64,000 nucleotides of DNA from an uncultured Gemmatimonadales bacterium (GTDB lineage: Bacteria; Gemmatimonadota; Gemmatimonadetes; Longimicrobiales; RSA9). Positions 4,566-32,153 of the stretch are shown here, piece by piece. A program made the translations under genes and the position numbers. Within the stretch, counting starts at the first letter, position 1. Every line of letters begins with the position of its first letter. The stretch spans positions 587,434 through 651,433 of the forward strand of contig CAVUKA010000005.1 in NCBI GenBank assembly GCA_963741945.1. The letters run 5' to 3'. A model generated the notes under the pieces. That model was not told where the DNA came from, searched no databases, and worked only from the letters and a program-made list of their open reading frames with translations.

Positions 4566-6209
4566 GTGACCATGGGGCACATCGATTGCCCCCTCTCGGG
4601 CCCGGCCGCAGGAGCGTGGGCGGCCGCCACCGACCCCGGACAACCGAGAAGCTCGATGATGACGCAGGGTGCAGCGCTGATGGAGCAGATGGACCCGCCG
4701 CGGCCGGGGCGCATGGTCTCGACGGGGATCGGCGCGCTGGACACTCGCCTGGGGACGCTGGTGCCCGGGCGCCACTACGCGGTCACGGGCGAGCCCGGCT
4801 CGGGGAAGACCACGGTGGCGCTGCACTTCATCGCCGCGGGCCTGGAGGCGGGCGAGCAGTGCGCCATCGTGACCCAGGAATCGGCCGGGGACCTGCTGGC
4901 GCACGCGGACCACATCGGGTGCGAGCTCCGCTCTGCGCTGCGCGACGGGCGGCTGGTGCTGGTGCGGATCCGGCCGGACTTCCCGCGCCGGTACGGCCGG
5001 CTCCGGAAGCCGGCGGCGGTGCGGGAAGAGCTCGGGGAGCTGCTGGCGGAGCGGGGCATGCTCCCGGACCGGCTGGTCATCGACTCGGCGGCCCCGTTCC
5101 TCGATGGCTCCCGGGGCTCCGGCGAGCTGGTGGACGTTCTGGGTGACTTCCTGGACGATGCCCGCGGCACCACGTACCTGACGGTCCCGGGCGAGCCCGG
5201 CGGTGGGCGGGGTCGGTTCCACGACCGCGTGATCACTTCCGCGGCCGGCGTGTTCCACGTGAGCCGCTCGGGCGGGGAGCGCCGGGAGCTGTCGATCCGG
5301 AAGCTGCGCCAGAAAGCCCACCGCGCGGACCCGTTCCTGTTCGACATCCGGCCGGGCGTGGGCATCGTGGACGGGATCCGCAGCTGGGAGCCCGAAGCGC
5401 AGCCCGACGAAGCGCGGCAGCGGGTGCTGGTGCTGGATGAGCACGGCGTCATCCCCGGCCACTTCCTGGCGGCCCTCGGGGAGAGCTTCACCCTCGATCG
5501 GTTCGGCAGCCTGGAAACGGGGTTCAGCGACATCGTGGGCGGCGGCTACGGCGCGCTCGTCCTCGGGCTGGACCCGTACCACCCCAACCTCACGCTGGAC
5601 CTGGCATACTCCCTCAGGAACTCCGGAAACGGCGCGCCGATCCTGTTCATCGCGCCGCGGGAAGGGCTGCGAGACAGCACGCGCGTGCGCGCGCTCAGGG
5701 CCGGCGCGGACGACTTCCTCACCGACGAGGCATCGCCAGTGGAAGTCCTCGAGCGCGTGGACGCCGCCACGGGGCGCGGGCCGCGGCGCGGATCGCCGGC
5801 CATCTCGCAGTCGCCGGTGCAGCCCGTGGACGCACGGGGGCGGCCGCGGCTCATGACGCCCGGGGAGCTCTCGAACGCCATCGAACGCGTCACTTCGGAT
5901 CCGAGCCCGCCAATGTTCGCGCTGCTGGCGATCCGGCCGCGGGGCGGCCCCGGCGAGGCGTGGACGATCCTGCAGGACCGCGTTCGCCTGAAGGACGGTG
6001 ACCTGGTCGCGCTGCTCGACGACCGGAGCATCGCCGTCGTCCTGGCCCACGTGGACGCCGACACGGCGCTGGACCTCGCGGTGCGCCTGCGCGCAGGGAA
6101 TCCGGGCGAGTACGAGCTGCTCACCTTCCCGGCCGACCGGGACGCCATTCACCACCGCTTCGGCGGGGAGCCGTCCCCCCGACCGCTCGCGATTCACGGG
6201 AGCCATTGA
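4566..6209 (+). CDS. KaiC/RAD55-like P-loop ATPase fused to atypical receiver and degenerate GGDEF-like domain (copy 1)
   Basis: STGIGALD, Walker A GEPGSGKT, RLVIDS, RELSIRKLR; REC-like RVLVLDE...APILFI...ALRAGADDFL; C-terminal RLKDGDLVALLDDRSIAVVL. True start may be a later Met. Confidence 0.8.
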   Translation: MTMGHIDCPLSGPAAGAWAAATDPGQPRSSMMTQGAALMEQMDPPRPGRMVSTGIGALDTRLGTLVPGRHYAVTGEPGSGKTTVALHFIAAGLEAGEQCAIVTQESAGDLLAHADHIGCELRSALRDGRLVLVRIRPDFPRRYGRLRKPAAVREELGELLAERGMLPDRLVIDSAAPFLDGSRGSGELVDVLGDFLDDARGTTYLTVPGEPGGGRGRFHDRVITSAAGVFHVSRSGGERRELSIRKLRQKAHRADPFLFDIRPGVGIVDGIRSWEPEAQPDEARQRVLVLDEHGVIPGHFLAALGESFTLDRFGSLETGFSDIVGGGYGALVLGLDPYHPNLTLDLAYSLRNSGNGAPILFIAPREGLRDSTRVRALRAGADDFLTDEASPVEVLERVDAATGRGPRRGSPAISQSPVQPVDARGRPRLMTPGELSNAIERVTSDPSPPMFALLAIRPRGGPGEAWTILQDRVRLKDGDLVALLDDRSIAVVLAHVDADTALDLAVRLRAGNPGEYELLTFPADRDAIHHRFGGEPSPRPLAIHGSH

Positions 6210-6210
6210 C

Positions 6211-6531
6211 ATGACACCGGACCAGATCCTCGCGCTCGCCATCCTCGTCACCGTGCTCGCCATCGTCGCCATGATCGTGCTGGCGGCCGCCGGATACCTG
6301 GTCTTCCGGCTCCGGGCCGGCGCCGCCGATCGGGGCGCCGACAGCGATGCCGCAGAGGCCACACCGGGCAGGCCGTACTTCTTCGAGCGCATCGGGCTGC
6401 CGGAAGCGGATGGCCTGGCCGATTCCGTGCCCGGAGGCCGCGGGCGCACGGTAACGCCACCACGGGGAAAGGGATGGCCGGGTTGTCCCGTGATGGAACA
6501 AGACCCTTGTAACCCCGGGGACACCCGCTAG
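6211..6531 (+). CDS. Small single-pass membrane protein
   Basis: ATG at 6211 directly after the upstream stop; strongly hydrophobic N-terminal helix; C-terminal end uncertain. Confidence 0.55.
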   Translation: MTPDQILALAILVTVLAIVAMIVLAAAGYLVFRLRAGAADRGADSDAAEATPGRPYFFERIGLPEADGLADSVPGGRGRTVTPPRGKGWPGCPVMEQDPCNPGDTR

Positions 6532-6612
6532 ATTGGCACCCTGACCGGCGCGCCAGTCCGGCGCGCGGACCTCCCGCGGACCACAGCCCTTCGCAACCGG
6601 AACGAGACGCGC

Positions 6613-8348
6613 GTGTCGCTGCGAGCGAAAATCCTGCTCCTCTTCTTCGGCTTCGCCCTGCTGCCGGTGCTGCTGCTCGGCGCGGGCGACTACCTGCAGT
6701 CGGTGGACGCGCTGCGCGCGGTCATCGAGGCGCGCGGCGAAGCGCTGGCCACGCAGGCCGCCGGGGAGCTGGAGCGGGAGTACGCGGACGCCACGTCCAG
6801 CCTCCGCTCCGTGGCGGAGCGCGTGGCGCTCCAGCAGGCCCGCGGATCCGCGATCGCGCTCGACGGGCCGCCGCCCGCCCCGTTCTCCTCCATCATCCTC
6901 GAGCTGCCCGGCCGCAAGGCGCGCGTCCTCTTCGAGGGCGGCGGTTCGGTGGGCATCGACAGCGGCTGTCCGGCGGAGCCGCGGGAGCTGCGGATCGCGG
7001 TGGCGCTGCCGGGCGCCGCGGCCGGCGCCCGGCTGGAGGGTGTTGTCGCCATGTCCAGGCTCCTCGGCGGGGCGCCCTCGCTGGCCGCGCACGTGGGGCA
7101 GCTGGGATTCAGCCGCCTGGTCGAGCGCAGCTCGGGACGGCCGCTGTACACGTCCGACTGCGCGCGGGTGGAGGGGCTGCCGTGGCCGCCGTTCGTGCCG
7201 GGCGCCCTCGATCCGCTGGTGGAGCGGCGCACGGTGGCGTACCATCGGCCGGGCGAGGGGACGTGGCGCGCTTCCGCCGCGGTGGCGCCCGGTCCCGGCT
7301 GGCTCGTCACCGTGCATTCCAGCGACGAGGAGTTCGTCGGCCCCTTCCGCCAGAGCCGCATGTTCTACATCGGGCTCGCGCTCCTGGTCCTGTCCGCCGC
7401 CGCGCTCTTCTTTTCCGTCCTGGCCCAGAACTCGTTCCGCTCCCTCGGCGCCCTGGCGGCCGCGGCCGATGCCGTCCGCCTCGGCAACCTGAACCCGTGG
7501 CTCCCGCCCCCGGGGGACGACGAGGTCGGCCGGCTCACGCTGGCCTTCCGCAAGATGATGGACCGGCTCGATGACTCGATCCGGCAGAGCGAGCTGAACC
7601 AGAAGATGGCGGCCGTGGGGGAGCTGGCCTCGTACCTGTCGCACGAGATCCGCAACCCGCTCAGCTCGATCCGCCTCTCGCTCCAGAGCCTCCGCCGCTC
7701 CCTCGACCGCGGCCGCCTCCCCGAAGACGCGCCCCGCATCCTCGAGATCGCGCTCAGCGAGGTGAACCGCCTCGATGGCGTGGTGCGCACGGTCCTCGAG
7801 ATGGGGCGCCCGGCCGGCCGCGGACGCGCGGGCGCCTGCTCGGTCCACGACAATCTTGGCGAAGCGCTCCAGGTGCTGGGGCCCAAGATGACCGCCCGCG
7901 GCGTCGACGTTCAGCTCGCCCGCGGCGCCGAGCCCGACCGCGTCTTCTGCGATCCCGAGTCGCTCCGGGGCGTCTGGATCAACCTGCTGGTGAACGCGCT
8001 GGACGCGCTCCAGGACCGGCCGGAGCCGCGCGTCCGCATCAGCACGTGGACCGATTCCGGGAACGGAGAGGTCGTGGTCCGGATGGCCGACAACGGCCCC
8101 GGCGTTCCCCCAGGCCTCGCCCGCTCCATCTTCGAGCCGTTCTTCACCACCAAGCCGCGCGGCAACGGCATCGGCCTCTCCATGGCCGTTCGCGTCCTGC
8201 AGCGCTTCGGCGGCGGCATCGCCTGCGAGCCCGTCGCCGCCGGCACGGGCGCGGCGTTCGTCATCCGCCTCCAGCTCGCCGCCTCCGATGCCCCGGCCGC
8301 CGAGGGCGCCACGACCGAAGAAACCCCTGTACTCGCGGGAGCCCGTTG

Positions 8349-8349
<1 letters not shown>
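6613..8349 (+). CDS. HAMP-domain sensor histidine kinase
   Basis: Two TM segments, HAMP (DEVGRL), H-box SHEIRNPL, N-box NLLVNA, G1 DNGPG, FEPFFTTK, GIGLS. Confidence 0.93.
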
Positions 8350-9724
<1,375 letters not shown>

Positions 9725-9728
<4 letters not shown>

Positions 9729-11521
9729 CACCCCGCTCTCCCGAACGCGCGCTGCTGCGCCGGCCACCTGCGTGGCCATGGATGGTCACGACCGCCGGGA
9801 TACTGATGACTGCCGCGGCGGCTCGCGGGCGCCGCTGGCCCGACCTCCTTCGGGGGCAGCTCTCCGACCCCGACGGGTACATGCGCCTCGTCCGAGTGCG
9901 TGAGCTTGTCCGGTCTCCGCTGAGCTGGTATCACGCCGAGATCTGGCGGAGCAACGTGCCGTTCGGCGAAGCCATGCACTGGACGCGCCCCCTGGACGCG
10001 CTGCTCGCTCTCGTGGCGCTTCCCCTCGAGCCGGTGATCGGCGCCAGCGCCGTTCTGGTTGCGGGTCTGGTGGTGCCGCCGCTCCTGCTTCTGGCTAGCT
10101 GCGTGGCGGCTGCATGGATGGTACGGCCGCTCGTCCGCGACCTCCATCCCGCCATGACCGCGCTCTTCGTCCTCGGTCAGCCGCTGGTCGTGAGCTATGG
10201 CCTCCCCGGGCGCGCCGACCATCACCTCCTCATCCTTCTCCTGGCCGCGCTGGTGCTCGGCGCCGCGGTCCGCATCGCCGAGGGGCGGAACGCCATCGAG
10301 GCGGCGCGGTTCGGCGGGATCGCGGCCGCCCTGGGAATCTGGGTGAGCACCGAGGCGCTGTTCGCCTACGGAATCGCCACCGTGCTGCTCGGACTGCCGT
10401 GGCTGACGGAATCGCGGGAGAGCCACTGGGCTCGCGTCAACGCCAGATTCCATGGATGGGCCGCGCTGGGGCTGGCGGCCGCCATCCTCCTGGAGCGTCC
10501 CTACACTCAGTGGCTGACCCTCAGTCTCGATCGGATCAGCGCGGTCCATCTCATCCTTGCCATGGGCCTTGTCCTCTTCTGGGCATTCGCCTCCGGCGTT
10601 CGGGCCCGGGGCGTTCGGCGCCGCGCGGCCCTCGCCGCAATGGGAGCGGCCATGCTCCTCACGACCCTCAGCGCCATGGCACCCGGTTTCGCGGCCGGCC
10701 CCTTCGCCCGCGTCGATCCGGGACTCCGCACACTATGGCTGAGCCACGTCCAGGAGTTCCTGCCGGTGCCGTGGAGTCCCGGGAGGGCGCTGGCCTATTT
10801 CGGCGCACCGCTCACGGCAATGGTCGGGTTGCCGCTGCTACTCCGGCCGGGCAGCGGGGGCAGGCGTGGAGTGGCCGTGCTGGCGTTCCCGCTCCTGCTC
10901 GCCTCCGTGATGGGCGTTGCACAGGTGCGATGGCTGCTGTACGCGCAGCTGATCGCGGCGGCCCTGCTGGCGGTGTACGTGTCCCGGGTCCGCGAACGGC
11001 TATCCGAAAGCCTTCCGCACCGCCTCCTGAAGGCGCTGGTGGTTGTCATAGCGGCCACCGCCTGGCTTGTGGGCGGGGGGGTGATCGACGCCTTCATCCA
11101 CCCGGCTCCGCGCGTAGCCGACAGCGTTCCCGCATGCGGCGAGCGGGATGTGATCTCCGCCCTCCAGGGTGCTGGATTCAGCGGGCCACAGGTGGTGGCC
11201 GCCCACGTAGACTTCGGGCCCGCGATCCTGTTCCGAACCCGTGATGCCGTGGTCGCCGCCCCGTACCACCGCAATTCGGGCACCCTCGCCGTCTACCAGG
11301 CGCTCAACGCGGTGGATCCGGAGCGCGCCAGAACCATCCTCCGGGCACGCCGGGTCGACCTCGTGGTCGTGTGCCCGGGCCACGACGAACCGTTCTTCCA
11401 AAAGCGGGTCCAGGGCGCGGAGACGCTTTTCGGGCATCTCGCCGCCGGGGATCCGCCTCCATGGCTGGCACCTCTCCCCCGTGGTTCCGGGGGTGCGGTC
11501 CTTTACCAGGTCCGGGAATGA
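9725..11521 (+). CDS. Multi-pass GT-C-fold glycosyltransferase-like protein (STT3/AglB-like), copy 1
   Basis: DPDGYMRLVRV, MHWTRPLD, GRADHH, many TM segments, C-terminal soluble domain AHVDFGP...AAPYHRN; TTG at 9725 overlaps the regulator stop. Confidence 0.65.
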
Positions 11522-13502
11522 CGTCCAGCCGAACGCGCGCGGGGTTGACCTGGGCGTCCGCGGGCGCGGTCATGGTGCTGTGGGTGGTGGCGGCATCATA
11601 CCAGCGATGGTCCCAGCTCTCGGCCGGATGGCTCCCCGGAACGGACGCGTACATGCGCCTCTTGCGCGTCCAGCGTCTGCTCGGGGGCGCCGGCTGGTTC
11701 GATGGGTCGATTCCGCGCAGCAACGTTCCCTACGGCGAGATGCTGCACTGGACCCGTCCCCTGGACGTGCTCATCGTCGCGGTCGCAATGGTCGTCAAGC
11801 CCTTCTCCCACGATCCACTGCTCACCACCGCTCTCGTCCTCCCGCCCGCGCTGATGATCGCGGCGGCCGTTGCGGCCGCCTGGATGGTCAGGCCCCTGTT
11901 GCAGGAGCTGTCGGCTCCGCTCGCGGCGATCTTATTCGTGGGCCAGCCCGTGGTCTTCGCCTACGGATTCCCCGGTCGTGCCGATCACCATCACCTCATC
12001 CTGCTGGCTGCTCTCATTCTTTTCGGCGCCATGGTACGGCTGCTCATCCGCCCCAGCTACGACATGGCTGTCGTCGCCGGGCTGGCAGCCGGATTCGGAA
12101 TGTGGGTCAGCGTCGAAGCGCTGCTCGCGTACGCCATCGTGACGGTGGTACTCGGACTTGCCTGGCTGAGGGGCGACACGCGGGCGTGGGCGCGGTCAAC
12201 CTGCGCTTTCACGCCGCCGCCGCGCTGGTCGTGGCGGTCTCGATCATCGTGGAGCGGCCTCCGGCCCAATGGCTGGATGTCTTCCTGGACCGCGTCAGCG
12301 TGGTTCATCTCCTCGTCTGCCTCGGCCTCGTGGCCTTCTGGGCGCTCGTGGCCCCGCGGGTCGCGGACGCTGGCGCGAGATCGAGGATGGCTGCGGCGGC
12401 GCTGTCCGGGGGTGCCATAGCCGCCCTCATTGCCGCTGTCGCACCGGCCTTCTTCCTCGGGCCGTACGCGAGCCTCGATCCGGCCCTGGTGGCTGTCTGG
12501 CTCCCCGGCATCAGCGAAGTCCACCCGGAAACGCTGACGCCGCGCCGGATCCTGCTGCACCTGGGCGCACCCGCCGTGGCTCTCGCCGCAACCGCCGCGG
12601 CAGCGCTGCGGACGGCGAGCCACCGGCCCGCGCGAGCGGCGCTCCTGGTCCCCCTTTCGGTCACCCTGGTCCTCGGGATCTTTCAGTTCCGCTGGCTCCT
12701 GTATGCCGAAGCACTCGGGGCCGCGTTGCTGGCCGTCGCCATCTCCGACGCCTCCGTCACCCTGCGCGGCTCCCCTCTCCAGCCCTGGGTCCGTAGCACG
12801 CTGGCGGTGGCGGGCACGTTCGGATGGGTGGTGGTCGGAAGCCTGCCGTGGCCAACGGCCAACTCCGCACCCGAGTTCGCATCCACATCCGGCTGCTCCG
12901 ATCAGCAGGCCGTCGCCGCGCTCGATGGCCTCGGCCCGAGCACCATCGCCACGTACGTCGATCTCGGGCCGGTGATCCTCTATCATACATCGCACGCGGT
13001 GCTGGCCGCCCCCTACCTCCACAATTCCGGCAACCGGGTGGTCATCGGGACACTGGACGCTCCGCTCGCCGAGGCCGACCCGGCCGAGCTCCGGGAGCGC
13101 GGCGTGAATTTGGTGCTGGTGTGCCCGGCCGGAAGGGACGCATACCTCGTGGCGGAGCGCGACGGGCGGGAGACCCTGTACGGCGCCCTCGTCCGGGGCC
13201 GCCATCCCGCCTGGCTCACACCCGTAGGAGATCCGGTTGAAAGTGCACCGGTTCGCCTCTACCGTCTGACGGGGAGCGCCGTCCCTGTTGCGCACCGCGG
13301 CTCTCGCGTGTCTCGCGCCGGAACAGAGTGGCCCGACGCCGCATCCGCCGCGAGGGCGAACAGTGGCGTATCCACGCGAATTCCGGCCGGTCGACGGCGT
13401 GCCAGAGGCGAGGAACGGCCCATGCCCTTTCGACGGGCATTTCGAGTCCACCCGGGCAACCCATGGCTGATCGCATCGTGGAAATCGGACACCCTCTCGT
13501 AA
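11518..13502 (+). CDS. GT-C-fold glycosyltransferase-like protein (STT3/AglB-like), copy 2; frameshifted near 12195
   Basis: Paralog of 9725-11521 (TDAYMRLLRV, LHWTRPLD, GRADHH, YVDLGP...AAPYLHN); one missing G in tgg gcg cgg tca ac breaks the WARVN segment seen intact in copy 1. Confidence 0.65.
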
Positions 13503-14236
13503 GCGTCATCCTCCCGGCGCGCGACGAAGCGGGCACCATCGCCGAGGTGGTGCGCCGGGTCGCGGCTTCCGTGGAGCGACGGGGCTGGAGCTACGAGATC
13601 GTGCTCGGAGACTCCGCGTCGTCGGATGACACCGTCGCCCGTGCCCTGGAAGCCGACCCCCGCCTGCGGGTCGTGCGCGCCGAACGCCCCGGAAAGGGAT
13701 TCGCCCTCACACGGGCGTTCCTGCACGCACGCGGCCAGATCCTTGCCTTCATGGACAGCGACCTCGACCTCGCCCCGGAAGACCTTCCCGCCCTCATCGA
13801 CGCCGTTCTCGCCGGCGCCGCCTGCGCCGCCGGCGCCAAGACCGGCGCCGCCCTGGCGTCACGACCATTCTTCCGTCGCATCGCGAGCAGGGCTGTGAAC
13901 GTGGCCGCCCGCTTGGCGCTGCGCAGCGGCATCAGCGATCATCAGACCGGAATGAAGGCGTTCGATGGGGCGGCGCTCCGGGCCGTCCTCCCCGAAGTCA
14001 TGGAAGCCGGGTGGCTCTGGGACACCGAAGTCCTATGGCGCCTCGGCCAGAGGGGTTCGGCCGTGGTCCAGGTTCCCGTGGGCCTCTCGGGAGCGCGGGA
14101 CGGCGCCTTCCGGAGCTGGCCGGACAGGATCACAGGGCTCGCGCAGGTCTTGTCGCTGTACGCACGCCTCTCCCGCGAGCCGGCACGGAACCCCGCGCAT
14201 GCCGATGCGGTAGCGTCGGGCCGATCCCGCAGGTAG
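13463..14236 (+). CDS. GT2 glycosyltransferase, polyprenol-phosphate sugar synthase-like (DPM/DPG synthase family)
   Basis: VSVILPARDEA, DSASSDDT, GKGFAL, FMDSDL, SDHQTGMKAF, WLWDTEVL. Confidence 0.85.
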   Translation: MADRIVEIGHPLVSVILPARDEAGTIAEVVRRVAASVERRGWSYEIVLGDSASSDDTVARALEADPRLRVVRAERPGKGFALTRAFLHARGQILAFMDSDLDLAPEDLPALIDAVLAGAACAAGAKTGAALASRPFFRRIASRAVNVAARLALRSGISDHQTGMKAFDGAALRAVLPEVMEAGWLWDTEVLWRLGQRGSAVVQVPVGLSGARDGAFRSWPDRITGLAQVLSLYARLSREPARNPAHADAVASGRSRR

Positions 14237-18511: not shown

Positions 18512-18584
18512 AACCAGCCGTTCCCGCGATCGACCGGACACACGAAAGTCCAGCAATGGCGCGGAAAACCTGCGATGGCACGCG

Positions 18585-18600: not shown

Positions 18601-18743
18601 ACCAGTACCGTGCGAAGGCGGGTCGAGCGACCTGCCGGAACGGGGAGATTCCCCTATCGGGCGCCGGTTCGGGCGCCCGCCCCGATCGCCGCCCGACACT
18701 CGGGCAGTTACTCACCCGGTCCCGGTAGGGACGAGGAGGAACG

Positions 18744-18935: not shown

Positions 18936-18963
18936 TCGGCGCTGGCGGCTGGCGCAAACGTGG

Positions 18964-18991
18964 GCGGGTGGGGCGCTGGTGCCCCACCCGC
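18964..18991 (+). terminator. GC-rich stem-loop downstream of flp (attenuator or mRNA stabiliser)
   Basis: gcgggtggggc-gctggt-gccccacccgc, perfect 11-bp stem; no U-tract. Confidence 0.5.
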
Positions 18992-19028
18992 ACGCGCGCC
19001 GGAGGGAACCCCACGCGAACCGAAGCGA

Positions 19029-20029: not shown

Positions 20030-20042
20030 GAGAAGGACCCTC

Positions 20043-20849: not shown

Positions 20850-20901
20850 TCCGTTGCGGACTGGCGGATCTTGCATGAACACCAGGGAAAGGGCGCATGA
20901 C

Positions 20902-22270
20902 ATGAGCTACGAGCATGGGGGTGAAGGCGCCTCCGTGGGGCCGCGCTGGCTGATGGCGGTCGTGATGGTGGTGGGGCTGGCGTGGGCCAGCGGGGCAGCC
21001 GCGCAGCGGATCATGTCGGAGCCCGGCCAGGTGATCACGCTCGCGAAGGGGGGCTCGGCGCTGCTCACGCAGCCGCAGCCGCTCAAGCGGGTGCTGGTGG
21101 GTGATCCTTCCATTGCCGACTACGCCCTGGTGTCTCCAGGCGAGCTGGTGGTGAACGCGCTCGCCGTGGGGTCCACCAGCCTGTTCGTCTGGGAGCAGGA
21201 CGGCGGCGTCCGCATGTACACCATTGCCGTCAGTCCCGACGTGGGCGCGCTCCAGCGCCAGATGGACCAGCTCTTCCCGCAGGCGGACATCCGCATCACC
21301 GCCAGCGGCCAGGCGGTGGTGGTCAGCGGCACCGTCCGCGATCCGCGCATCGCGCGCCGCGCCATGGAGATCCTCCAGAGTGGCGGCGCCGAAGTGATCA
21401 ACAACCTGGTGGCGCCCTCCGCGCAGCAGGTGCTGCTGCACGTGCGCTTCGCGGAAGTGGACCGCAGCATCCTGCACAACCTGTCCAGCGACCTGCGCGC
21501 GCTCAACCCGCACGAGTTCGGGAACGTGGAGAAAGTGGTGGGGTCGTCGCTGCAGACGCTGTCCGAGGGGATCGTCCAGCTGCTGCTCCTCGGCGACAAC
21601 GGCACCGAGCTCGACTGGTTCCTGCGCGCGCTGCGCACGCAGGGCTACTTCAAGAGCCTGGCCGAGCCGAACCTGGTGGCCATCGAGGGGCAGGAGGCCA
21701 CGTTCCTGGCGGGCGGCGAGTTCCCGTACCCGTCCGTGCAGGGCGGGCAGAACAGCCAGGTCAGCATCCAGTGGAAGGAGTTCGGCATCCGGCTCAACTT
21801 CACTCCGCGCATCATGAACGATGGCGGGATCCGGCTCGAAGTGGCCCCGGAAGTGTCCTCCCTGGATTTCGCCAACGGCCTGACGTTCTCCGGCTACCAG
21901 ATCCCGGCGCTGAACACGCGCCGCGCGGAAACGCAGGTGGAGCTGAAGCCCGGGCAGAGCATCGCCATTGCCGGGCCTGCTGAACAACGAGCACCAGAAG
22001 GACGTGGACCAGATCCCGATCCTGGGGCAGATCCCGATCATCGGCGCCTTCTTCAGCAACCGCTCCAGCCGCGACACGCAGACCGAGCTGCTGGTGATCG
22101 TCACGCCGTACATCGTTCAGCCCAGCGACGCGTCTCCCGCCCTCCCCACGGGCGAGCCGTCCACGTGGGAGCGCAGCAGGATATTCAACGAGACGGAGCT
22201 CCATCTCCCGATCGGCGAGCCGGCGGCCCCGCCCGCTTCCATTCCGGGGGGCGGCGGGCAGGAAGAGTAG
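20902..22270 (+). CDS. cpaC: Secretin CpaC/RcpA; frameshifted near 21973
   Basis: VGDPSIAD, QQVLLHVRFAEV, LAEPNL, FLAGGEFP, KEFGIRL; C-terminal GLL...IPILGQIPIIGAFF...TELLVIVTP continues in another frame after one extra base. Confidence 0.9.
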
Positions 22271-22277
22271 GGGAGCC

Positions 22278-23519
22278 ATGAACAAGCACCAGGACGCGGT
22301 GGTTTCCGGACGGCGGCAGGGCGTGGCCCTGCCGATCGTCGCGGTCATGTTGATAGGGCTGCTGGCCATCATCTCCCTGGCCGTGGACCTCGGAATGGCC
22401 TACACCGGCCGCGCCGAGGCCCAGCGCGTTGCGGACGCCGCCGCGCTGGCCGGCGCCAGCGCGTACCTGGACTTCACGCCCCCGGACGCGCAGGAAACGA
22501 TCGACGCTGCGGACGCGCGGGCGCACGACTACGTGGCGCGCAACGTCATCCGCAGCGAGCACATCGACCAGGACCAGGATGTCCAGGTGGACGTGATGCC
22601 GGAGACCCAGCGGGTCCGGGTGTGGGTCCGCCGCCGCGGCCTCGCGACCTGGTTCGCCAAGCTGTTCGGCGTCGATCAGATCGCCGTCACGGCCGAAGCC
22701 ACCGCGGAAGCCATGTCCGCCGGCGCCACGAACGATTGCCTCAAGCCGTTCGTGCTCCCCGACCTGTGGGATGAGAACGACCCGAGCCAGGACACGAACG
22801 GCGACAACTGGTGGGATAACGACGAGGACTGGGATTACAATCCAAACGATCCTGAGTTCCCCGATGAATATCAGGTCGCCCAAGCGGTCGGTGATACCGC
22901 CGCCACGGGATATGGCAGCGCATTCCGGAACGCCACGAGTGACTTCGGCGACGACTACGGCCGCCAGCTCATGATCAAGCCGGCGGACCCGAACGACCCG
23001 AAGATCGCGCGGCCGGGCATCTTCTACCCGTGGCGGATCGGCGAGTCCAGCGGCGCGAGCGATTACAAGGAGAACATCGTCACGTGCAACCCGGAGAACA
23101 CGGTGATCGGGGACGGGGACATCGAAACCACGGACGACCAGTACAGCCTGGAGCCCGGGAACATGATCGGCCCCACGTTCCAGGGCATCGGCGACCTGAT
23201 CGCCCTCGATCCGACCGCGCAGTGGCAGCCCGGCCAGGGCCCCGACGGCCAGGGCGCGGTGGTGGGCTCGGCGTATTCCGACTGGCTGAACCACAGCCCG
23301 CGTGTGGTGACCATCGGGCTGGTTGACCCCGGCATGCTGAACCAGGACATCAACCCCTCGGACAAGATCGAGTTCAACAACTTCGCCAAGGTCTTCATCG
23401 AGGCCCAGCCGAGCCGGAAGGACCCCGTGACCGCCCGGTTCCTCTACTACGTGCAGGGCTCCGGACCGTCCGGCAAGACGCAGAGCCCGCTCGTCAAGAC
23501 CATTCGACTTGTCCAGTAG
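22278..23519 (+). CDS. tadG: TadG-like pseudopilin/adhesin with Asp-rich C-terminal domain
   Basis: RQGVAL, LAVDLG...AQRVADAAALAGA motif. Confidence 0.85.
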   Translation: MNKHQDAVVSGRRQGVALPIVAVMLIGLLAIISLAVDLGMAYTGRAEAQRVADAAALAGASAYLDFTPPDAQETIDAADARAHDYVARNVIRSEHIDQDQDVQVDVMPETQRVRVWVRRRGLATWFAKLFGVDQIAVTAEATAEAMSAGATNDCLKPFVLPDLWDENDPSQDTNGDNWWDNDEDWDYNPNDPEFPDEYQVAQAVGDTAATGYGSAFRNATSDFGDDYGRQLMIKPADPNDPKIARPGIFYPWRIGESSGASDYKENIVTCNPENTVIGDGDIETTDDQYSLEPGNMIGPTFQGIGDLIALDPTAQWQPGQGPDGQGAVVGSAYSDWLNHSPRVVTIGLVDPGMLNQDINPSDKIEFNNFAKVFIEAQPSRKDPVTARFLYYVQGSGPSGKTQSPLVKTIRLVQ

Positions 23520-23528
23520 ACGGCCCAA

Positions 23529-24776
23529 ATGGATGATGCCAAGCTGAAGACCGCCGTCATATCGGGGAGCCGCGAGTTCCGGGAGACCGTGTCCCGGCTG
23601 CTCAAGGAGTTCCCCGAGATGCTGCGCGTGGTGAGCGATTTCCCGGTGCCCGCGGGCGACCTCGACAGCGAGATGCTCGAGGAGCTGCACCGGGACGATC
23701 CGGAGCTCATCATCGCGGATTTCAATGGCGACCCGGTCGCGTCGCTGCGCTACATCCGGCTGCTCTCGGATGCGCGCCCGTCGCGCCTCTTCCTCGGCGC
23801 CGGCCCGGAGCTGCCGCCCAAGCTGCTGATCGAAGCGATGCGCGCGGGCGTCTCCGAGTACCTGCCCATGCCGGTGGAGCCGCGGCAGCTGGACGAGGCG
23901 CTGCGGCGGGTGGGCCGGAAGCTCGGACGCGGCCCGTCGGCGGGGACGAAGGAGGGCGCCCGCATCGTGGCGTTCGCGGGCGCCAAGGGCGGAACGGGCG
24001 CGACCACGGCAGCGGTGAACGCGGCCGTCCACGCGCACGCGCTGACAGGCCGTCGCACGCTGCTGCTGGACCTGGACGTGGAGTACGGGAGCGTGGGCGT
24101 GATGACCGGCGTCGCCCCGAAGTACAGCATCCGGGACCTCGTTTCCAACCTGCACCGGCTCGATGAGAGCCTGCTGGAATCGCTCATCACCGAGCACGGC
24201 TCGGGGGTGCACGTCCTGCCCGCCCCGGTCCAGTGGGACGAAGCGGAGTCCATCCGGCCCGAAGACGTGCGCACGGTGCTCCGCCTCATCCGCCACCACT
24301 ACGACATGGTGGTGGTGGACGTGGCGCGCCCCAGCACCCCCCTCGCCCGGGTCGTGCTCGAGCAGGCGGACGCCATCTACCTGGTCCTGAACGCGGACCT
24401 CCCGTCGCTCCGCCACGCGAAGCGGATCATCGCCCAGCTCCAGACCGGGAACGGCCAGTCCCACGATCGCGTGCGCGTCATCCTGAACCGCATCACCGCC
24501 GGCGGCGAGGAGGTCACGGCGGCGGACGTCGACAAGACGCTGAACGTCCCCGTCGCCTTCAGGCTGCGGCAGGACGACGCCGCCGTGCTCCGCTCCGTGA
24601 ACGTGGGCGAGCCGGCGGTCTCGAACGGCTCGCGGTCGAAGTACTGCCAGGACGTGAAGGAGCTGGGCCTCGAGATCGCCCGGTCGGTGGACCCGGGCAT
24701 CGAGGAACAGGGGCGCGGCCTCCTTGGCCGGCTGTCCAGGAAGATCGGTGGCAAACGCAGCGGGAGCGGCTCATGA
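23529..24776 (+). CDS. cpaE: CpaE/TadZ (receiver-like + MinD/ParA-like ATPase)
   Basis: [32 protein letters not shown]. Confidence 0.9.
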
Positions 24777-26221
24777 GCACGGATGCGGGGGAACAGCAGG
24801 TTCGGCAGAAGCGCCCGGACGGAGGCGAGGGCCTCGAGCCGCTGGCGCCGCTCGCGCGGTCGGGCGACGCGGGCACGCGGACCATGGAGGACGTGCGCGG
24901 GCGGATCCACCGCAAGCTGCTGGAGCGGCTGAACCTGTCCAACCTGGACGGGCTCAGCCGCGAGGACGCGGCCGCGTCCATCAAGCCGGAGATCCAGAGC
25001 CTCCTGAGCGCCGAGGGCGTGGCGCTGAACCTGGAGGAGCGGGAGAAGCTGACGCAGCAGGTCCTGGACGAGATTTTCGGCCTCGGCCCGCTCGAGCCGC
25101 TCATGAAGGACCCGGACGTCTCCGACATCCTGGTCAACACGCACGCCCAGGTGGTGGTGGAGAAGTACGGCAAGCTGGAGCCCACGAACGTGCGCTTCCG
25201 CAACGATGCCCATCTCATGCAGATCATCGACCGCATCGTGTCCGCCGTGGGCCGCCGCATCGACGATTCTTCGCCCATGGTGGACGCGCGGCTCCCGGAC
25301 GGCTCGCGCGTCAACGCCATCATCCCGCCGCTGGCGCTGGACGGGCCGCACCTCTCCATCCGGAAGTTCAAGCGGGACACGCTTTCCGGTGACGACCTCC
25401 TGCGCAGCCGGAGCTTGACCGAGCCGATGCTCGAGCTGCTCCGCGCCGTGATCCAGGCGAGGCTGAACGTCCTGATCTCCGGCGGCACGGGCGCGGGCAA
25501 GACCACGCTGCTGAACATCCTGACGTCCTACATCCCGGCGAACGAGCGGATCGTGACCATCGAGGACTCCGCCGAGCTCCAGCTCCGCCAGCCGCACGTG
25601 GTGCGCCTGGAGACGCGGCCGGCGAACCTCGAGGGGCGGGGCGAGGTGGCGCAGCGGATGCTCCTGGTGAACGCGCTCCGCATGCGCCCCGACCGGATCA
25701 TCGTGGGCGAAGTCCGAGGCGGTGAAGCGGTGGACATGCTCCAGGCCATGAACACCGGCCACGACGGCTCCATCACCACGCTGCACGCGAACACGGCCCG
25801 GGACGCGCTGAGCCGGCTGGAGACCATGATCTCCATGGCCAACCTGCGGCTGCCGGAAAAGGCCATGCGGCAGCAGGTGGCCTCGGCCATCAACGTGGTG
25901 ATCCAGCTCAGCCGCCTCTCCGACGGCTCCCGCAAGGTGACCTCGGTCTCGGAGATCGTCGGCATGGAAGGCGACGTCATCACCATGCAGGACATCTTCC
26001 AGTTCGAGCGTCAGGGGATCAACGAGGAGGGCGACGTGGTGGGTCGCTTTCGCTCCACCGGGATCCGCCCGCGCTTCTCCGACCGGCTCAAGGCGCACGG
26101 CATCAACCTCGGCGAGCTGCTCTTCTCGAACACCGACGGTCCGGCGGCGCAGGAGAGCCTGCGATCGCTGCGCGCCGAAGCGGCACCGGGGCCCGGCCGC
26201 TCGCTCAAGGAGTGGTCATGA
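24773..26221 (+). CDS. cpaF: Pilus assembly ATPase CpaF/TadA
   Basis: [63 protein letters not shown]. Confidence 0.97.
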
Positions 26222-27195
26222 GTCCCTGGATCCCCACCATCCTCGTCTTCGTGGCGGCGGCGTTCGCCACCGTGGCGGTGGTCCTCGTCCTGGAGGGCGG
26301 GCGGGCGTGGTACCGCCGGCGCGACGTGACGCGGCGGGTGGACGACATGCTGACGGGGCGCGCCGACCTGCCCGCGGACGCCACGGGCTCGCTCTTCCGC
26401 GAGCGGCGCCCGGAGGCGGGCGGCCTCGAGCTGCTCGTCGCCCGGTTGCCGAAGATCCGGGACGTGCCGGTGCTCCTCGAGCACGCGCGCAGCACGTGGA
26501 GCATGAACACGTTCGTTTTCCTGACCATCGGGCTCGCGGTGGCGTTCGGCCTGGCGGCCATGACCGCGGGGGCCGGCCCGATCGTGGCCGCGATCCTGGC
26601 CCTGGTGGGCGCGTGGCTCCCCTACGCCTGGCTGAAGCTTAAGAAGTCGCGCCACCTGAACCGGTTCGAGGAAGCGTTCCCGGAAGCCATCGACATGCTC
26701 GGGCGCGCCATCCGGGCCGGCCACCCCCTCTCCGCCGGGATCCAGATGGTGGGGCAGGAGATGCCGGACCCCGTGGGCGGCGAGTTCCGCACGCTTTCCG
26801 AGGAGTCCCGCTTCGGCGTGCCGTTCGCCGAGGCCATGATGGGGATGGTGGACCGCGTGGACCTGGTGGACGTGCGCATCTTCTCCACCGCCATCCTGGT
26901 CCAGCGCGAGGTGGGCGGCAACCTGGCGGAGATCCTGGACAACATCTCGAACATGATCCGCTCGCGCTTCAAGATCCGGCGCCAGCTGCGCACGTACACG
27001 GCGCAGGGCCGGATGAGCGGGATCGTGGTGGGGCTCATGCCCCTCGTGGTGGGCGTCGCCTTCTATTTCCTGAATCCGGAATACGTCCGGCTCCTGTTCG
27101 AGCACCCGATCGGCCGGGTGATGCTGGCGTTCGCCGTGGTCATGCAGATCTTCGGCTACTTCTGGATCCGCAAGATCGTCAACATCGAGATCTGA
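26218..27195 (+). CDS. tadB: TadB inner-membrane platform protein
   Basis: [35 protein letters not shown]. Confidence 0.93.
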
Positions 27196-27196
27196 C

Positions 27197-28123
27197 ATGA
27201 TTTCACTCATTGCGCTCAGCGCGGCCGTGGCCATCGGGCTGGTGGTCTACCTGATCGGACAGCTCATCCCGGCTCGCTCCGCGGCCGTCGACCGGCGGGT
27301 GACGGAAGTGGCCACGCTGTCGGAGGCCGCCGAGGCGGTCCAGCGCCGCCGCCGCCAGGAGCAGCGTCAGCAGCTCGAGGACCTGCTCGAGGTGGTGGGG
27401 CGGCAGCTCAAGGGCTACACCGCGGAATCGGAAGCGACCCGCGAGCTGCTCACCCACGCGGGCTACCGCAGCCCGAAGGCCGGGCCGATCTACTGGGGGC
27501 TCCGCTTCACGTCCGCGGCCGTCCTCGCCATCGGCGCGAGCGTGGTGCTGCCGATGGTGGGCGCGAAGGCAGCGATCACGGTCCTGGTGTCCGTGTACGT
27601 GGCCGCCATGGGCTTCGTGCTGCCGCTGCTCGTGGTCCGGGCCAGGGCGCGGCGCCGGCAGAAGGAGATCGTGCTCGCCCTCCCCGACGCGCTCGACCTG
27701 CTGGTGGTGTGCGTGGAAGCGGGGCTCGGGCTGAACCAGGCGTTCGTGCGCGTGGCCGACGAGATCCACCCGCTGAGCCAGACCATGGCCGCGGAGCTCC
27801 ACCTCCTCAACCTGGAGATCCGGGCGGGGAAGCCGCGGGAGGAAGCGCTCAGGAACGTCTACAACCGGACGGGCGTCGACGACCTCCGCTCCCTCACGCT
27901 CATGCTGATCCAGGCGGACCGCTTCGGCACGTCCATCGCCCACGCGCTCCGCGTCCACTCCGAGACGCTGCGTGACAAGCGGCGGCAGCGGGCGGAGGAG
28001 GCCGCGGCCAAGACCGCCATCAAGCTCATCTTCCCGCTCGTGCTCTGCATCTTCCCGGCGATGTTCGTGGTGCTGGTCGGGCCCGGCCTGATCCAGATCA
28101 TCGAAACGCTCGGCAGCATGTAG
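27197..28123 (+). CDS. tadC: TadC inner-membrane platform protein
   Basis: LPDALDLLVVCVEAGLGL, QADRFGTSI, AEEAAAK...KLIFPL. Confidence 0.93.
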   Translation: MISLIALSAAVAIGLVVYLIGQLIPARSAAVDRRVTEVATLSEAAEAVQRRRRQEQRQQLEDLLEVVGRQLKGYTAESEATRELLTHAGYRSPKAGPIYWGLRFTSAAVLAIGASVVLPMVGAKAAITVLVSVYVAAMGFVLPLLVVRARARRRQKEIVLALPDALDLLVVCVEAGLGLNQAFVRVADEIHPLSQTMAAELHLLNLEIRAGKPREEALRNVYNRTGVDDLRSLTLMLIQADRFGTSIAHALRVHSETLRDKRRQRAEEAAAKTAIKLIFPLVLCIFPAMFVVLVGPGLIQIIETLGSM

Positions 28124-28141: not shown

Positions 28142-28574
28142 ATGCGAGCGCTGCGCGTGGAGAACCGGACCAGGGATACCGTGCTCGGCACGCGCATCCG
28201 GCTGGCGGACGACCTGTTCGGCCGGCTCCGGGGCTTCCTGCTGCGCCCGGCGCCGGAGCCCGGGGAAGGGATCCTGCTCAGCCCCTGCCAGGGCGTGCAC
28301 ATGTTCGGCGTGCGCTATCCCCTGGACGTCCTGTTCATCGACGAGAGCGGTCGCATCCTGCGCGTCTACGAGGGGCTGCGTCCCTGGCGCTGGACCCCCG
28401 TCCACGGCGAGGCGTCGTACGCGCTGGAGCTCCCGCCCGGCACCGTCCGGGAAACGGGTACGCGCATCGGGGATGCGCTGACCTGGCTTCCCAACAGTGA
28501 TGCCAGCGGTCCGCCGCGGGAGCGGCAGTCACCGCGGGAGTCGGGCTCCGGCTCCCGCAGAACCGGAAAGCGGT

Positions 28575-28588
<14 letters not shown>
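28142..28588 (+). CDS. DUF192 family protein
   Basis: ADDLFGRLRG, VHMFGVRYPLDVLFID, ALELPPG. Confidence 0.85.
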
Positions 28589-29948
<1,360 letters not shown>

Positions 29949-29950
29949 GC

Positions 29951-30598
29951 ATGGCCGAAATGGATCAGAAGACCGAGCCCATGGAGATGCCGCCCGAGCT
30001 GGTCCGGGAGTTCAGGGACCTGGTCTCGGAGCGGGTGCGCGTCGAGACCGCGGCCATCCGGCGGAGGATGAAGGTGCTCGGCTGGTTCGCCGTGGTCCTG
30101 GCGCTGGTCGCGGCCGCCGGCACCGCCGGCGTCCTCTACTACGCTTTCTACCAGGGGCTCCCGGTCCTCACGTCTCCCACCGTCCGCACGCGCGAGGTGG
30201 TGCTCATGGGGGCGGACGGGAAGGCGCGCGGCTACTGGCGCGTGGACGAGGAGGGCGCGGCCCGCTTCGCCCTCACGGATCCCCGCGGCGTGGACCGGCT
30301 GAAGCTGACCCTGAAGACCAACGGGGAGCAGGGCGTCTCCATGGCCGACTCCACCGGCGCGGCGCGCGTGGTGCTGGGCTTCCTCGACGACCAGAGCGGC
30401 ACGCTCGGCTTCGCGGATGGCCGCGGCCAGACCCGGGGCGTCCTGGGCCTCACGCCGGACGGCGAGACCTCGCTCCTCTTCGCCGACCAGAACGGCGGCA
30501 CGCGGGCGGTCCTGGGCGTGCGGGCGGACGGCGAGCCGGAGTTCTGGTGGCCGGCCCTTCAGCAGGGGCAGACCGACACGGCCGGCGGCAGTCGCTGA
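29951..30598 (+). CDS. Membrane-anchored protein with 23-aa beta-repeat domain
   Basis: One TM helix followed by 4-5 repeats resembling G-x3-L-x-F-A-D-x2-G-x2-R-x2-L-G. Confidence 0.75.
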   Translation: MAEMDQKTEPMEMPPELVREFRDLVSERVRVETAAIRRRMKVLGWFAVVLALVAAAGTAGVLYYAFYQGLPVLTSPTVRTREVVLMGADGKARGYWRVDEEGAARFALTDPRGVDRLKLTLKTNGEQGVSMADSTGAARVVLGFLDDQSGTLGFADGRGQTRGVLGLTPDGETSLLFADQNGGTRAVLGVRADGEPEFWWPALQQGQTDTAGGSR

Positions 30599-30644
30599 CA
30601 TTCCACGGATCTGACTCCACCACCCATCACACGGATAACGGCGC

Positions 30645-32153
30645 ATGCGGTCAACTGGCGTGGAGGCACTGGAATCACGGCTCGGCGGGATCGACCCGAG
30701 CGGGGCTTTCCTGGTCGCGGGGCCGGAGGGGGTGGGGAAGAGCGTGCTCGGGCTCCACTTCCTCATCGCCGGTCTCGAGCAGCAGGAGCACTGCATCCTG
30801 GTCACCGCCAGCGACGCGGGCATGGTGGACGGGCGCGGCCTGTACATGGGCTTCAGCCCCGGCTCCATCTCCGAGCACCCCTCGCTGCAGGTGGTGGACA
30901 TCCGTGACGCCATCTCGCGGCTCGGCGTGTGGCGCGAGCGCCACGCACCCGTGGAAGCGCTCAAGCGGCTGGTCGGCCAGGGGCCGCGCCCCGTCACGCG
31001 CATCGTCATCGACGAGCTGCGCCACTTCCTCCAGGACTCGCACACGCCCCAGGCCACGGCACGGGCGCTCATGAGCTTCCTGGCCGGGTCCGGCGCGTCC
31101 GCCTACCTCATCGCCAGCAACGCCGACATGACGGCGCTCCCCGATGACGTGCTCCGCACCATCGAGGGCGAGGCGGCGGCCGTGCTGGAGATGGAGCCGC
31201 TGGGCCGCGGCCGCAAGCGCATCTCGTTCCGGAGCGTGCGGCAGAACAGCTTCTCCACCGAGCCGTTCCTCTACACGCTGCGCACGGGCGGCGGGATCGC
31301 GGAAGACCTGCCCGCGTACGAGCGCGAGGTCCGCACGTCGCTCCGTGGCACCATCGCAATCCTGGACGAAGCGGGCGTGCTGCCGGGCGAAGTGGTGCAG
31401 GCGCTCTCCACCAGCTTCGAAGTGGAGCTGTACAACGAGCTCCAGGGCTCGCTGGTCAAGCTCCTGGAAGCCCGCTACGGCGTGCTGGTGCTGGGCGTGG
31501 ACCCGTACGACCCGGAGCGCGCGTTCAACCTGACCTACACGCTCCGCAAGGCGGGCAACGGCGCGCCCATCCTCTTCGTGGCACCCAGCCGCGGGCTGCG
31601 CAGCATGACCCGCTCGCGCGGGCTCCGCATGGGCGGCGACGATTTCGTCCTCTCCGAGCTCCCGCCCGCCGAGATCGTGGAGCGGATCCGGATCAGCGCG
31701 GCCCGGGGGCACCACCGGCGCAACGGCTCGGTCCGTCCCGACCGGCAGCTGCAGCCGCGGAACGAGGCCGGCGAGCTGCGCCCGATGAAGGCGCACGAGA
31801 TGGCGCTGGCCGTGCGCGAGCTCGTCGACGAAGCGCCCACGCCCTTCTTCGCCCTGGCGCTGCTGGACACCCGCGAGCTGCTCAGCCCCACCGAGCTGTG
31901 GGAGTCGCTGCGTCGCCAGGCCCGGCTCAACGACGGGGACCTGGTCTCCATCCTCCCCGACGGCCGCGTGGCGCTGCTCATCAACCAGGTCGACCAGCAC
32001 CTGGCGAACCGCGTCCTCACGCGCATCCAGCGCTCGCACCCGGCGCTTCAGAACATCCTCGAAACCAGGGTCCTCACCAGCCCGCTGGAGGAGTCCGAGA
32101 TCGAGCGCTGGGCCACGCAGATCGGGCTGAAGAAGCTGGAAGCCGGAGGCTGA
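30645..32153 (+). CDS. KaiC/RAD55-like ATPase + atypical REC + degenerate GGDEF-like protein (copy 2)
   Basis: STGVEALE, Walker A GPEGVGKS, RIVIDE; YGVLVLGVDPY...GNGAPILF...LRMGGDDF; RLNDGDLVSILPDGRVALLI; clear paralog of 4566-6209. Confidence 0.82.
   Translation: MRSTGVEALESRLGGIDPSGAFLVAGPEGVGKSVLGLHFLIAGLEQQEHCILVTASDAGMVDGRGLYMGFSPGSISEHPSLQVVDIRDAISRLGVWRERHAPVEALKRLVGQGPRPVTRIVIDELRHFLQDSHTPQATARALMSFLAGSGASAYLIASNADMTALPDDVLRTIEGEAAAVLEMEPLGRGRKRISFRSVRQNSFSTEPFLYTLRTGGGIAEDLPAYEREVRTSLRGTIAILDEAGVLPGEVVQALSTSFEVELYNELQGSLVKLLEARYGVLVLGVDPYDPERAFNLTYTLRKAGNGAPILFVAPSRGLRSMTRSRGLRMGGDDFVLSELPPAEIVERIRISAARGHHRRNGSVRPDRQLQPRNEAGELRPMKAHEMALAVRELVDEAPTPFFALALLDTRELLSPTELWESLRRQARLNDGDLVSILPDGRVALLINQVDQHLANRVLTRIQRSHPALQNILETRVLTSPLEESEIERWATQIGLKKLEAGG

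Follow-up and report, generated by a model that had tools for sequence, protein, structure and literature searches.

A lineage-specific Tad pilus locus of an uncultured Gemmatimonadales bacterium with two KaiC-type regulator paralogs and a glycosyltransferase gene cassette

Gene series and conserved Tad core

We analysed a stretch of 64,000 nucleotides, hereafter the window, from an uncultured Gemmatimonadales bacterium (assembly GCA_963741945.1, 4.09 Mb in 8 contigs; the window is C5:587434-651433, on contig CAVUKA010000005.1), in which a Tad pilus locus is combined with two copies of a KaiC-type regulator and with a cassette of membrane protein and glycosyltransferase genes. The G+C content of the window is 71%, and codon-position G+C (GC3) frame analysis, together with Pfam and NCBIfam scans, delimited a series of plus-strand genes that runs without a break from about 4566 to 32153. 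The series starts with the first regulator gene (KaiC1, or copy 1), followed by those for a 106-aa protein with a single transmembrane (TM) helix, a HAMP-HisKA-HATPase kinase, a REC-sigma54-HTH activator, two paralogous membrane proteins (A1 and A2), a GT2 glycosyltransferase and a second pair of membrane proteins (B1 and B2), and continues with flp, cpaA, tadE, cpaB, cpaC, tadG, cpaE, cpaF, tadB, tadC and the genes for a DUF192 protein, an AAA+ ATPase, a TM/beta-repeat protein and the second regulator (KaiC2, or copy 2). Neighbouring genes overlap by 4-13 nt at 8346/8349, 9725/9728, 11518/11521, 22278/22281, 24773/24776 and 26212/26221, and the first gene beyond 32153 is convergent. An earlier reading of this DNA, made from the letters alone (the sequence-only reading), had described the order of the genes, their common strand and their overlaps at stop and start codons, and all three were thus confirmed. 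As detailed below, the locus is a lineage-specific mosaic with real parts and not the archaeal-style machine proposed in that reading, and what is new in it is the link of the regulator to the Tad system.

The pilus genes form a complete Tad system, as had been proposed. The flp gene (18744..18935) encodes a pilin of 63 aa that matches both Flp1_like and Flp_Fap and carries a GQG/LVEY processing motif, and the genes from cpaA to tadC follow it at 18960..28123. A prepilin peptidase (Peptidase_A24) is present, and the CpaF/TadA ATPase, TadB plus TadC, CpaE/TadZ, the secretin, CpaB and TadE/G were all detected above the Pfam cut-offs; the CpaF of the locus is the only one in the genome. The cpa/tad loci of Caulobacter and Aggregatibacter contain flp and the genes for the prepilin peptidase, TadE/G, CpaB, the secretin, CpaE, CpaF, TadB and TadC. 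The Tad/Flp loci of Rhizobium etli p42e also hold the full core and share with the window an AAA+ gene after tadC. In comparison with these three, the window adds the DUF192 and beta-repeat proteins, the upstream kinase and sigma-54 activator, the two regulators and the cassette.

Downstream of tadC, the gene for the DUF192 protein (28142..28588) is followed by that of a divergent AAA+ ATPase (28500..29948), which appears from comparative searches to be a widespread Tad accessory, and by a gene for a protein with one TM helix and periplasmic beta-hairpin-like repeats (29951..30598), for which no Pfam match was found at E<=10. The flank downstream of tadC is visible in 11 loci; all of them have the succession tadC-DUF192-AAA+, with the beta-repeat gene coming next in nine. 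The AAA+ protein is 48-77% identical across the phylum, apart from two matches at 42%, and was detected at E<=1e-40 in 52 of the 401 genomes of an unbiased phylum sample. Its family is very large and strongly conserved, 7981 of the 8000 candidates that were scored having E<=1e-10, and has members in 76 plasmid records; the copy on R. etli p42e lies directly after tadC, and a Rhizobium plasmid gene in the same position (locus L192, 11926-13230) encodes a protein around 40% identical to that of the window. These comparisons indicate that the ATPase appears to be a general Tad accessory, undescribed as far as literature searches reach; for DUF192 with Tad, the literature yielded only one unrelated genome paper.

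On the other side of flp, the window encodes a sensor histidine kinase (HK; 6613..8349; 2 TM helices, HAMP, HisKA and HATPase_c) and an NtrC-type sigma-54 activator (8346..9728; REC-AAA-HTH_8; Sigma54_activat E 2.3e-66). This pair was found just upstream of flp in genomes G402 and G401 and, with a 3-kb insert, in G380 (loci L014, L173 and L070), and was not found upstream of flp in G179 and G404. The claim that the HK-NtrC pair, the DUF192 protein, the AAA+ ATPase and the beta-repeat protein belong with the pilus genes held in the neighbourhood comparison, as they travel with the tad genes in relatives, and HK-NtrC-flp…tadC-DUF192-AAA+-beta-repeat protein can be taken, on gene order, as the conserved core of the locus.

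The genome contains rpoN, the gene for sigma-54, and two candidate boxes were noted in the window. A TGGCAC box at 18576..18581 (+), around 165 nt upstream of flp, is a candidate -24 element, and TGGCA(C/T) was found upstream of flp in all four loci with ntrC upstream, the -12 element not being canonical. Apart from this box and a GC-rich hairpin, alignment of the flp upstream regions revealed no clear common promoter or leader. The hairpin was seen in the flp leader of two loci (window 18655-18695, GGGCGCC..GGCGCCC; L014 ~9770-9800, GGGCGC..GCGCCC) and has no match in Rfam; in the scan of the whole window no Rfam family reached its gathering score. The other box, GGGCAC-N5-TTGC at 4575..4589 (+), is one of only two matches with one mismatch in the window, and lies inside the long open reading frame (ORF) called for copy 1, around 70-125 nt before its likely start. 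This near-consensus box suggests that the regulator-kinase-activator operon is perhaps itself sigma-54 dependent; it is a lead only, the sigma-54 matches with two mismatches in the window being fewer than expected by chance.

Domains, contexts and phylogeny of the KaiC-type regulators

The two genes that bracket the series encode proteins with the same three-domain layout, a KaiC-type P-loop ATPase, a pseudo-receiver and a GGDEF-like domain, that are 35% identical over their full length. KaiC1 (4713..6209; PF06745 E 7.1e-22) has an ORF open from 4566, its alignment with copy 2 begins at the methionine at 4713, and the likely start is the ATG at 4656 or that at 4713. KaiC2, the paralog at the Tad end, lies at 30645..32153 (PF06745 E 6.2e-11). 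The profile of the family matched KaiC (E 8e-38), FlaH (4yds, E 6e-12) and REC (E 2.6e-7) structures in the Protein Data Bank (PDB). Each protein has one PF06745 domain and not the tandem KaiC pair of the circadian type; two KaiC homologs that do have a double domain were found at other sites of the genome (C3:789924-791288 and C1:1237090-1238466).

The sequence-only reading had named these proteins KaiC-REC-GGDEF, of which the KaiC part stood. In Pfam scans at E<=0.01 neither protein gave a REC or a GGDEF match, the receiver is recognisable only in a degenerate form, and the third domain is only remotely GGDEF-like, with its motif replaced. The conserved receiver lysine is changed to S, A or another residue in all the aligned rows, and the position of the canonical aspartate varies (G/A/V/S or D/E/Q/N/T/C). 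The last ~130 aa align with the GGDEF domains of the same genome, in which there are 12 GGDEF matches (hhalign 79%, E 1.6e-5, versus 1.7% for the CpaE control), and GGDEF domains are six of the ten best matches of the C-terminal domain in the PDB profile search (best E 0.003). In the ESM Atlas the C-terminal part has GGDEF clusters as neighbours at 0.93, with just 152-159 common features, which is a lead only. The domain is short (~110-130 aa), has no match to PF00990 in the Pfam scans and reads xDGxV at the motif position, in such a way that it would be catalytically dead. Its sole invariant motif is R-x3-G-D, at the place where diguanylate cyclases and BcsE have the I-site for c-di-GMP; in the GGDEF matches of the PDB its G-D falls on the I-site G-D of one diguanylate cyclase.

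The Walker A and B motifs are intact in the regulators; among the listed rows covering that region, Walker A is intact in 30 of 32. In the clade that includes copy 2, the acidic pair conserved after strand 2 is gone, the TQDD/THDD of other members being replaced by TASD, TSAD, TPNS and similar sequences (residues 48-58 of copy 2), from which it seems that these proteins may bind ATP without hydrolysing it. A predicted complex between CpaE (135-415) and copy 2 (228-502) had a score of 0.00, which speaks neither for nor against binding.

In order to collect related loci, searches with a single regulator protein were of no use, as they found nothing; it was the alignment-based searches of genome and metagenome collections that yielded loci, and the loci fetched were scanned with two sets of queries, the proteins of the window and probes taken from a single polysaccharide locus. 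The family is small, with only 50 clusters at 90% identity among 5.8 billion proteins. A profile of the C-terminal domain found 165 representatives in 1.84 billion proteins, and in the full-length matches this domain is the C-terminus of a protein of ~480-540 aa. All 40 full-length genome loci come from metagenome-assembled genomes labelled as Gemmatimonadota, except two labelled "uncultured", and the regulator was found at E<=1e-15 in 13 of the 401 phylum genomes (three candidates scored per genome). The family seems, to the extent of these searches, confined to Gemmatimonadota. No description of it or of its link to Tad was found in literature listings and abstracts.

Most members of the family are not associated with pili. 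Among 78 members, some of them near-copies of one another, so that the context counts are not independent, 55 precede an exopolysaccharide (EPS) operon with genes for a TPR protein and a GT2 synthase. In 50 cases no tad gene was seen in the fetched flanks and the EPS operon lies downstream, where the genes for a TPR protein and a PgaC-like GT2 synthase are often joined by a glycosidase-like one. Four more have tad genes upstream and the EPS operon downstream (L016, L019, G179 and G380), and one (L014, in G402) has the order regulator-TPR-synthase-small TM-HK-NtrC-flp…beta-repeat. Five others (window copy 2, L089, L009, L011 and L012) come after tad…beta-repeat, and polysaccharide genes are absent downstream of them. 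The remaining rows are window copy 1 and 17 with flanks that are too short or empty.

Genome G402, with the regulator-TPR-synthase-small TM-HK-NtrC-tad arrangement, has a second operon of the order regulator-TPR-TPR-synthase-small TM (L172, G402:C161, 6591-12514). In a Gemmatimonadaceae locus (L048, 5900-10002), two intact diguanylate cyclases, one of them REC-GAF-GGDEF, are divergent and upstream of the regulator, which fits an input by cyclic di-GMP (c-di-GMP).

A maximum-likelihood tree of the 78 rows (quick mode, SH-aLRT support) gathered all the Tad-linked members in a single clade of 18 rows with a support of 100, inside which those with tad upstream and EPS downstream form a clade of their own. 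The copy-1 types (window, L013 and L014; support 99) are sister to the copy-2 types (six rows; support 100), with a support of 98 for the sister relationship. The copy-2 clade is found at the 3' end of the Tad genes, after tad…beta-repeat, in all five loci with visible context. No synthase genes follow either copy in the window and, compared with L014 and L172, copy 1 lacks the TPR and synthase genes. It is followed by the gene for the 106-aa protein (6211..6531), which has one TM helix (residues 6-24) and no family match in Pfam, also at E<=10; EPS operons of the KaiC1 type in L014 and L172 end with a homolog of its gene, and it is a candidate membrane anchor, BcsF-like by position only.

The closest known parallel that we found is BcsE. 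According to the excerpted text of PMC7439463, BcsE begins with a module that resembles RecA/KaiC, continues with a degenerate receiver and ends with a degenerate GGDEF domain, in which an RxxD I-site binds c-di-GMP. Its gene leads the bcsEFG operon, BcsF, a small membrane protein, serves as its anchor, and the MinD-like BcsQ is one of its binding partners. The regulators probably have the three-part layout of this protein, as described there, and, in most family members, they have its position as leader of a synthase-type polysaccharide operon. A small single-TM gene adjoins copy 1, as bcsF does bcsE in that description, and a MinD-type ATPase belongs to the same system in both cases, CpaE here and BcsQ there; CpaE gives weak matches to the BcsQ family in Pfam and NCBIfam. 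On the other hand, the regulators have intact Walker motifs, whereas the same excerpts contrast BcsE's N-terminal region with a RecA-like Walker A. They also differ from BcsE in the motif R-x3-G-D instead of RxxD, in the shorter GGDEF-like domain, in belonging to another phylum and in the presence of two copies on a Tad pilus locus, of which copy 2 has no polysaccharide genes.

The cassette between ntrC and flp

Between ntrC and flp the window holds 8.8 kb with five genes, the first of which overlaps ntrC by 4 nt (9725/9728). A1 (9725..11521) encodes a GT-C-like membrane protein with at least 9 TM helices and a DPD motif at residues 48-50, in its first outer loop; it matches NCBIfam archaeo_STT3 at E 8.6e-8, far under the cut-off, and has no Pfam match even at E<=10. 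A2 (11518..13502) is its paralog, and an N-terminal part of it scored 24.2 bits against Pfam STT3, with a cut-off of 24.5. A sequence scan found no WWDxG in either protein, and the label "STT3-like" previously given to them did not withstand these searches. The GT2 gene (13328..14236, with the true start probably near 13463) encodes a probable polyprenol-phosphate sugar synthase of the GtrB/ArnC/AglJ type (Glycos_transf_2 E 3.9e-20), with NCBIfam matches to AglJ, ArnC and Dol-P-hexose transferase that are all under the cut-offs. The membrane protein B1 (14239..16419) has 8 N-terminal TM helices, a periplasmic part of ~280 aa and a C-terminal TM helix, and B2 (16410..18486) is its paralog. No hidden Markov model matched either of them at E<=10 and no sequence in the PDB matched B1; their earlier label, "PTPS-related", lost its footing in that way, standing only on language-model features, by which their neighbours in the ESM Atlas are PF10131 (PTPS_related) and YfhO clusters (score 0.99).

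Paralog alignments located three single-base shifts in A2 and B2, each of them equivalent to one missing letter, at 12189/12190, at 16451/16452 and in a G/C run at 18194-18209. Read through with X, A2 has 661 aa, no stop and 42% identity to A1 over 567 aa, and B2 has 692 aa, no stop and 52% identity to B1 over 638 aa. At two of these sites, directly after 12189 and 16451, short-read contigs of a sediment metagenome (run X1) carry a letter that the window lacks; they form a low-depth DNA contig set that covers 16 of 30 bins of the stretch, with no informative coverage of the third break. The three breaks are thus probably assembly errors or very recent changes, and not old pseudogenes. Programmed frameshifting was considered for them and rejected, as the independent contig has the missing letter at two. 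Stops inside conserved genes were also seen in other long-contig genomes of the phylum.

Periplasmic glycosylation systems of three components combine a GT2 of the GtrB/CsbB type with a GT-C, for instance YfhO, ArnT or TfpW; the last of these, an arabinosyltransferase for pilin, is a precedent for a GT-C encoded in a pilin locus. The cassette resembles these systems in that a GT2 akin to polyprenol-phosphate sugar synthases lies beside multi-TM GT-C-like proteins, and differs from them in that A and B fall under every curated cut-off, in that two GT-C types are each duplicated and in that no flippase gene was identified.

The proposed linkage of these genes to Tad was borne out in part. Genes of the A and B types are rare, each being found in 4 of the 401 phylum genomes, the window's included. 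In two of the three other genomes that have A homologs, G239 and G309, which represent two other genera, these are only 7 kb away from the AAA+ gene, which is not so in G394. A-type genes and Tad loci come together more frequently than chance would give for genes of this rarity. In locus L011 a B homolog abuts the regulator of the copy-2 type. However, the cassette is not among the conserved parts of this locus, since it lies between ntrC and flp only in the window, one of the four loci with ntrC upstream of flp, and no GT-C gene was found between them in the other three. In G380 (L070), the gap between ntrC and flp, at 15459-18088, contains a gene of the PD-(D/E)XK nuclease family and another for a 565-aa protein without Pfam match. 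Because this gap also holds inserted genes, the ntrC-flp junction looks like a recurrent insertion site.

Outside the series, the flanks have a housekeeping character, with ABC-2 and M50 protease genes upstream and convergent GGACT and Nramp genes downstream. An ordinary 2-oxoacid dehydrogenase cluster (E1 alpha, E1 beta, E2 and lipoamide dehydrogenase) was found on the minus strand at 38928-44370.

Proposed history, rival explanations and meaning

We propose, with a probability of around 55%, that the locus is a mosaic of three layers. The first layer would be a Tad operon of the Gemmatimonadota type, from flp to tadC plus the DUF192, AAA+ and beta-repeat accessories, which the sensor kinase and the sigma-54 activator next to it probably turn on. 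The second layer would consist of two paralogs of a phylum-specific regulator whose ancestor led an EPS operon, as BcsE leads bcsEFG. In the gene order of the window, this EPS operon would have adjoined the Tad operon; after a duplication, copy 2 would have been fixed at the 3' end of the Tad genes without polysaccharide genes and co-opted for the pilus, and copy 1, next to HK-NtrC, would have retained the small membrane partner but not the synthase genes. Depending on a nucleotide (ATP, and perhaps c-di-GMP), the regulators would control envelope machines post-translationally or serve them as scaffolds. The third layer would be the 8.8-kb periplasmic glycosylation cassette (two A proteins, a GtrB-like GT2 and two B proteins), recently inserted between ntrC and flp. 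As it is translationally coupled to ntrC, we infer that the cassette is co-expressed with the regulators, and its candidate acceptors would be the Flp pilin or a minor pilin.

The sequence-only reading took the KaiC-like proteins for partners of the motor ATPase CpaF, of the ArlH/FlaH type, and the locus for an archaeal-style filament system with AglB-type glycosylation. It is true that a KaiC/RecA-type single ATPase module is encoded near the ATPase of a type IV filament in both cases, that the family profile also finds the FlaH structure, and that copy 2 is kept at the Tad end wherever its context is visible. According to the excerpts of PMC6668835, the archaeal Epd pili, which are the closest archaeal kin of Tad, have a FlaH-like ATPase in the place of TadZ; within these excerpts FlaH is mentioned only for the Epd pili. 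The window locus, however, also encodes CpaE/TadZ. ArlH has one domain only, and the window module is fused to two signalling-type domains, matches KaiC far better than FlaH, and scores 16.4 and 22 bits against NCBIfam ArlH (NF052589), with a cut-off of 215. Moreover, the family is mostly linked to polysaccharides, and for 50 of the 55 members that lead EPS operons the flanks that were fetched hold no gene for a type IV ATPase, the copy-2 clade has no acidic pair after strand 2, and the A proteins have no WWDxG. We consider this explanation very unlikely, and the motor-partner idea is the weakest part of the earlier proposal.

A more serious alternative concerns the cassette, which could be unrelated to pili and represent a mobile GtrB/GT-C module for another envelope polymer (exopolysaccharide, lipid or wall glycopolymer) that landed between ntrC and flp. 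It would explain that genes of the A and B types, rare in the phylum, were not found in seven genomes of the same family, that the B homologs of G302, G259 and G323 lie away from tad, two of them beside a GT2, that YfhO-family clusters are among the nearest feature neighbours of the B type, and that the window pilin, compared with those of genomes that have or lack the cassette, is not set apart by any sequon or special tail. The 4-nt overlap of ntrC and A1 and the unbroken series of overlapping genes across the cassette argue in the opposite direction, as do the A homologs close to Tad in two other genera and the B homolog at the Tad-end regulator of L011, which exceed the linkage expected by chance for rare genes. 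We regard this possibility as plausible, a little short of even odds. In a different alternative, both KaiC-type genes would be leftovers of a rearranged EPS locus and would serve a synthase locus 23 kb upstream, or nothing, but not the pilus. The EPS operon is indeed the ancestral context of the regulator, copy 1 has lost the TPR and synthase genes, and the best EPS-synthase match of the genome lies at that distance (C5:568022-569146). Nevertheless, both ORFs are intact with their motifs conserved, and selection for the Tad-end position can be argued because the members of the copy-2 clade keep 37-65% identity and their synteny with tad across distant genomes. This makes the leftover explanation unlikely.

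Several observations weigh against the three-layer mosaic that we prefer. The regulator lies within 5 kb of the AAA+ gene in only 3 of the 52 genomes with the AAA+ gene and this type of Tad (G000, which is that of the window, G380 and G179; three candidates scored per genome), and the Tad linkage is biased, the regulator itself having been the query by which most loci were found. It may also be that copy 1 is a relic. No sequence kinship was detected between the family and E. coli BcsE (hhalign 0.15%), nor was there a Pfam BcsE match at E<=0.01, and because this kinship is not detectable we file the family as one that works like BcsE and not as a member. The evidence from profiles for a GGDEF-like third domain is weak (Pfam GGDEF_2 E 0.12), and the canonical I-site arginine at -3 is not conserved, the invariant one being at -5, with an exception in L079 (RTGD). 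The EPS-linked loci have no MinD/BcsQ-like gene, as no cpaE match was found outside the tad loci, and therefore a BcsQ-type partner is not general. A canonical GG-N10-GC promoter was not found before flp. As for the cassette, the B homologs are not near tad in any of the three phylum-sample genomes that have them besides the window's, and genomes that lack the cassette likewise have pilins with C-terminal ends rich in S/T/P/N. The heavily glycosylated pilus of the sequence-only reading is conjectural; glycosylation of the pilin is possible.

A further step beyond the mosaic, which we advance tentatively and hold to be rather doubtful, is that a BcsE-type switch, with an ATP-binding KaiC domain, a pseudo-receiver and a dead GGDEF domain that senses c-di-GMP, was duplicated from an EPS operon and co-opted to control Tad, maybe via CpaE or the AAA+ ATPase, in such a way that it couples pilus and matrix, with the pilus decorated by the GT-C system of the locus.

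Tad pili drive surface attachment in many bacteria and, to our knowledge, post-transcriptional tuning of their assembly is known for only a few models. The comparison picks out the DUF192 protein, the very conserved AAA+ ATPase, common to rhizobial plasmids, and the beta-repeat membrane protein as regular, uncharacterised Tad accessories, which are cheap targets for genetics. The locus also ties the Tad machine to a family of BcsE-like proteins found elsewhere at the head of polysaccharide operons, and BcsE-style control may thus extend past cellulose and Proteobacteria and may reach type IV filaments. If the switch was indeed co-opted in this way, one protein family would couple the production of pilus and matrix in Gemmatimonadota.

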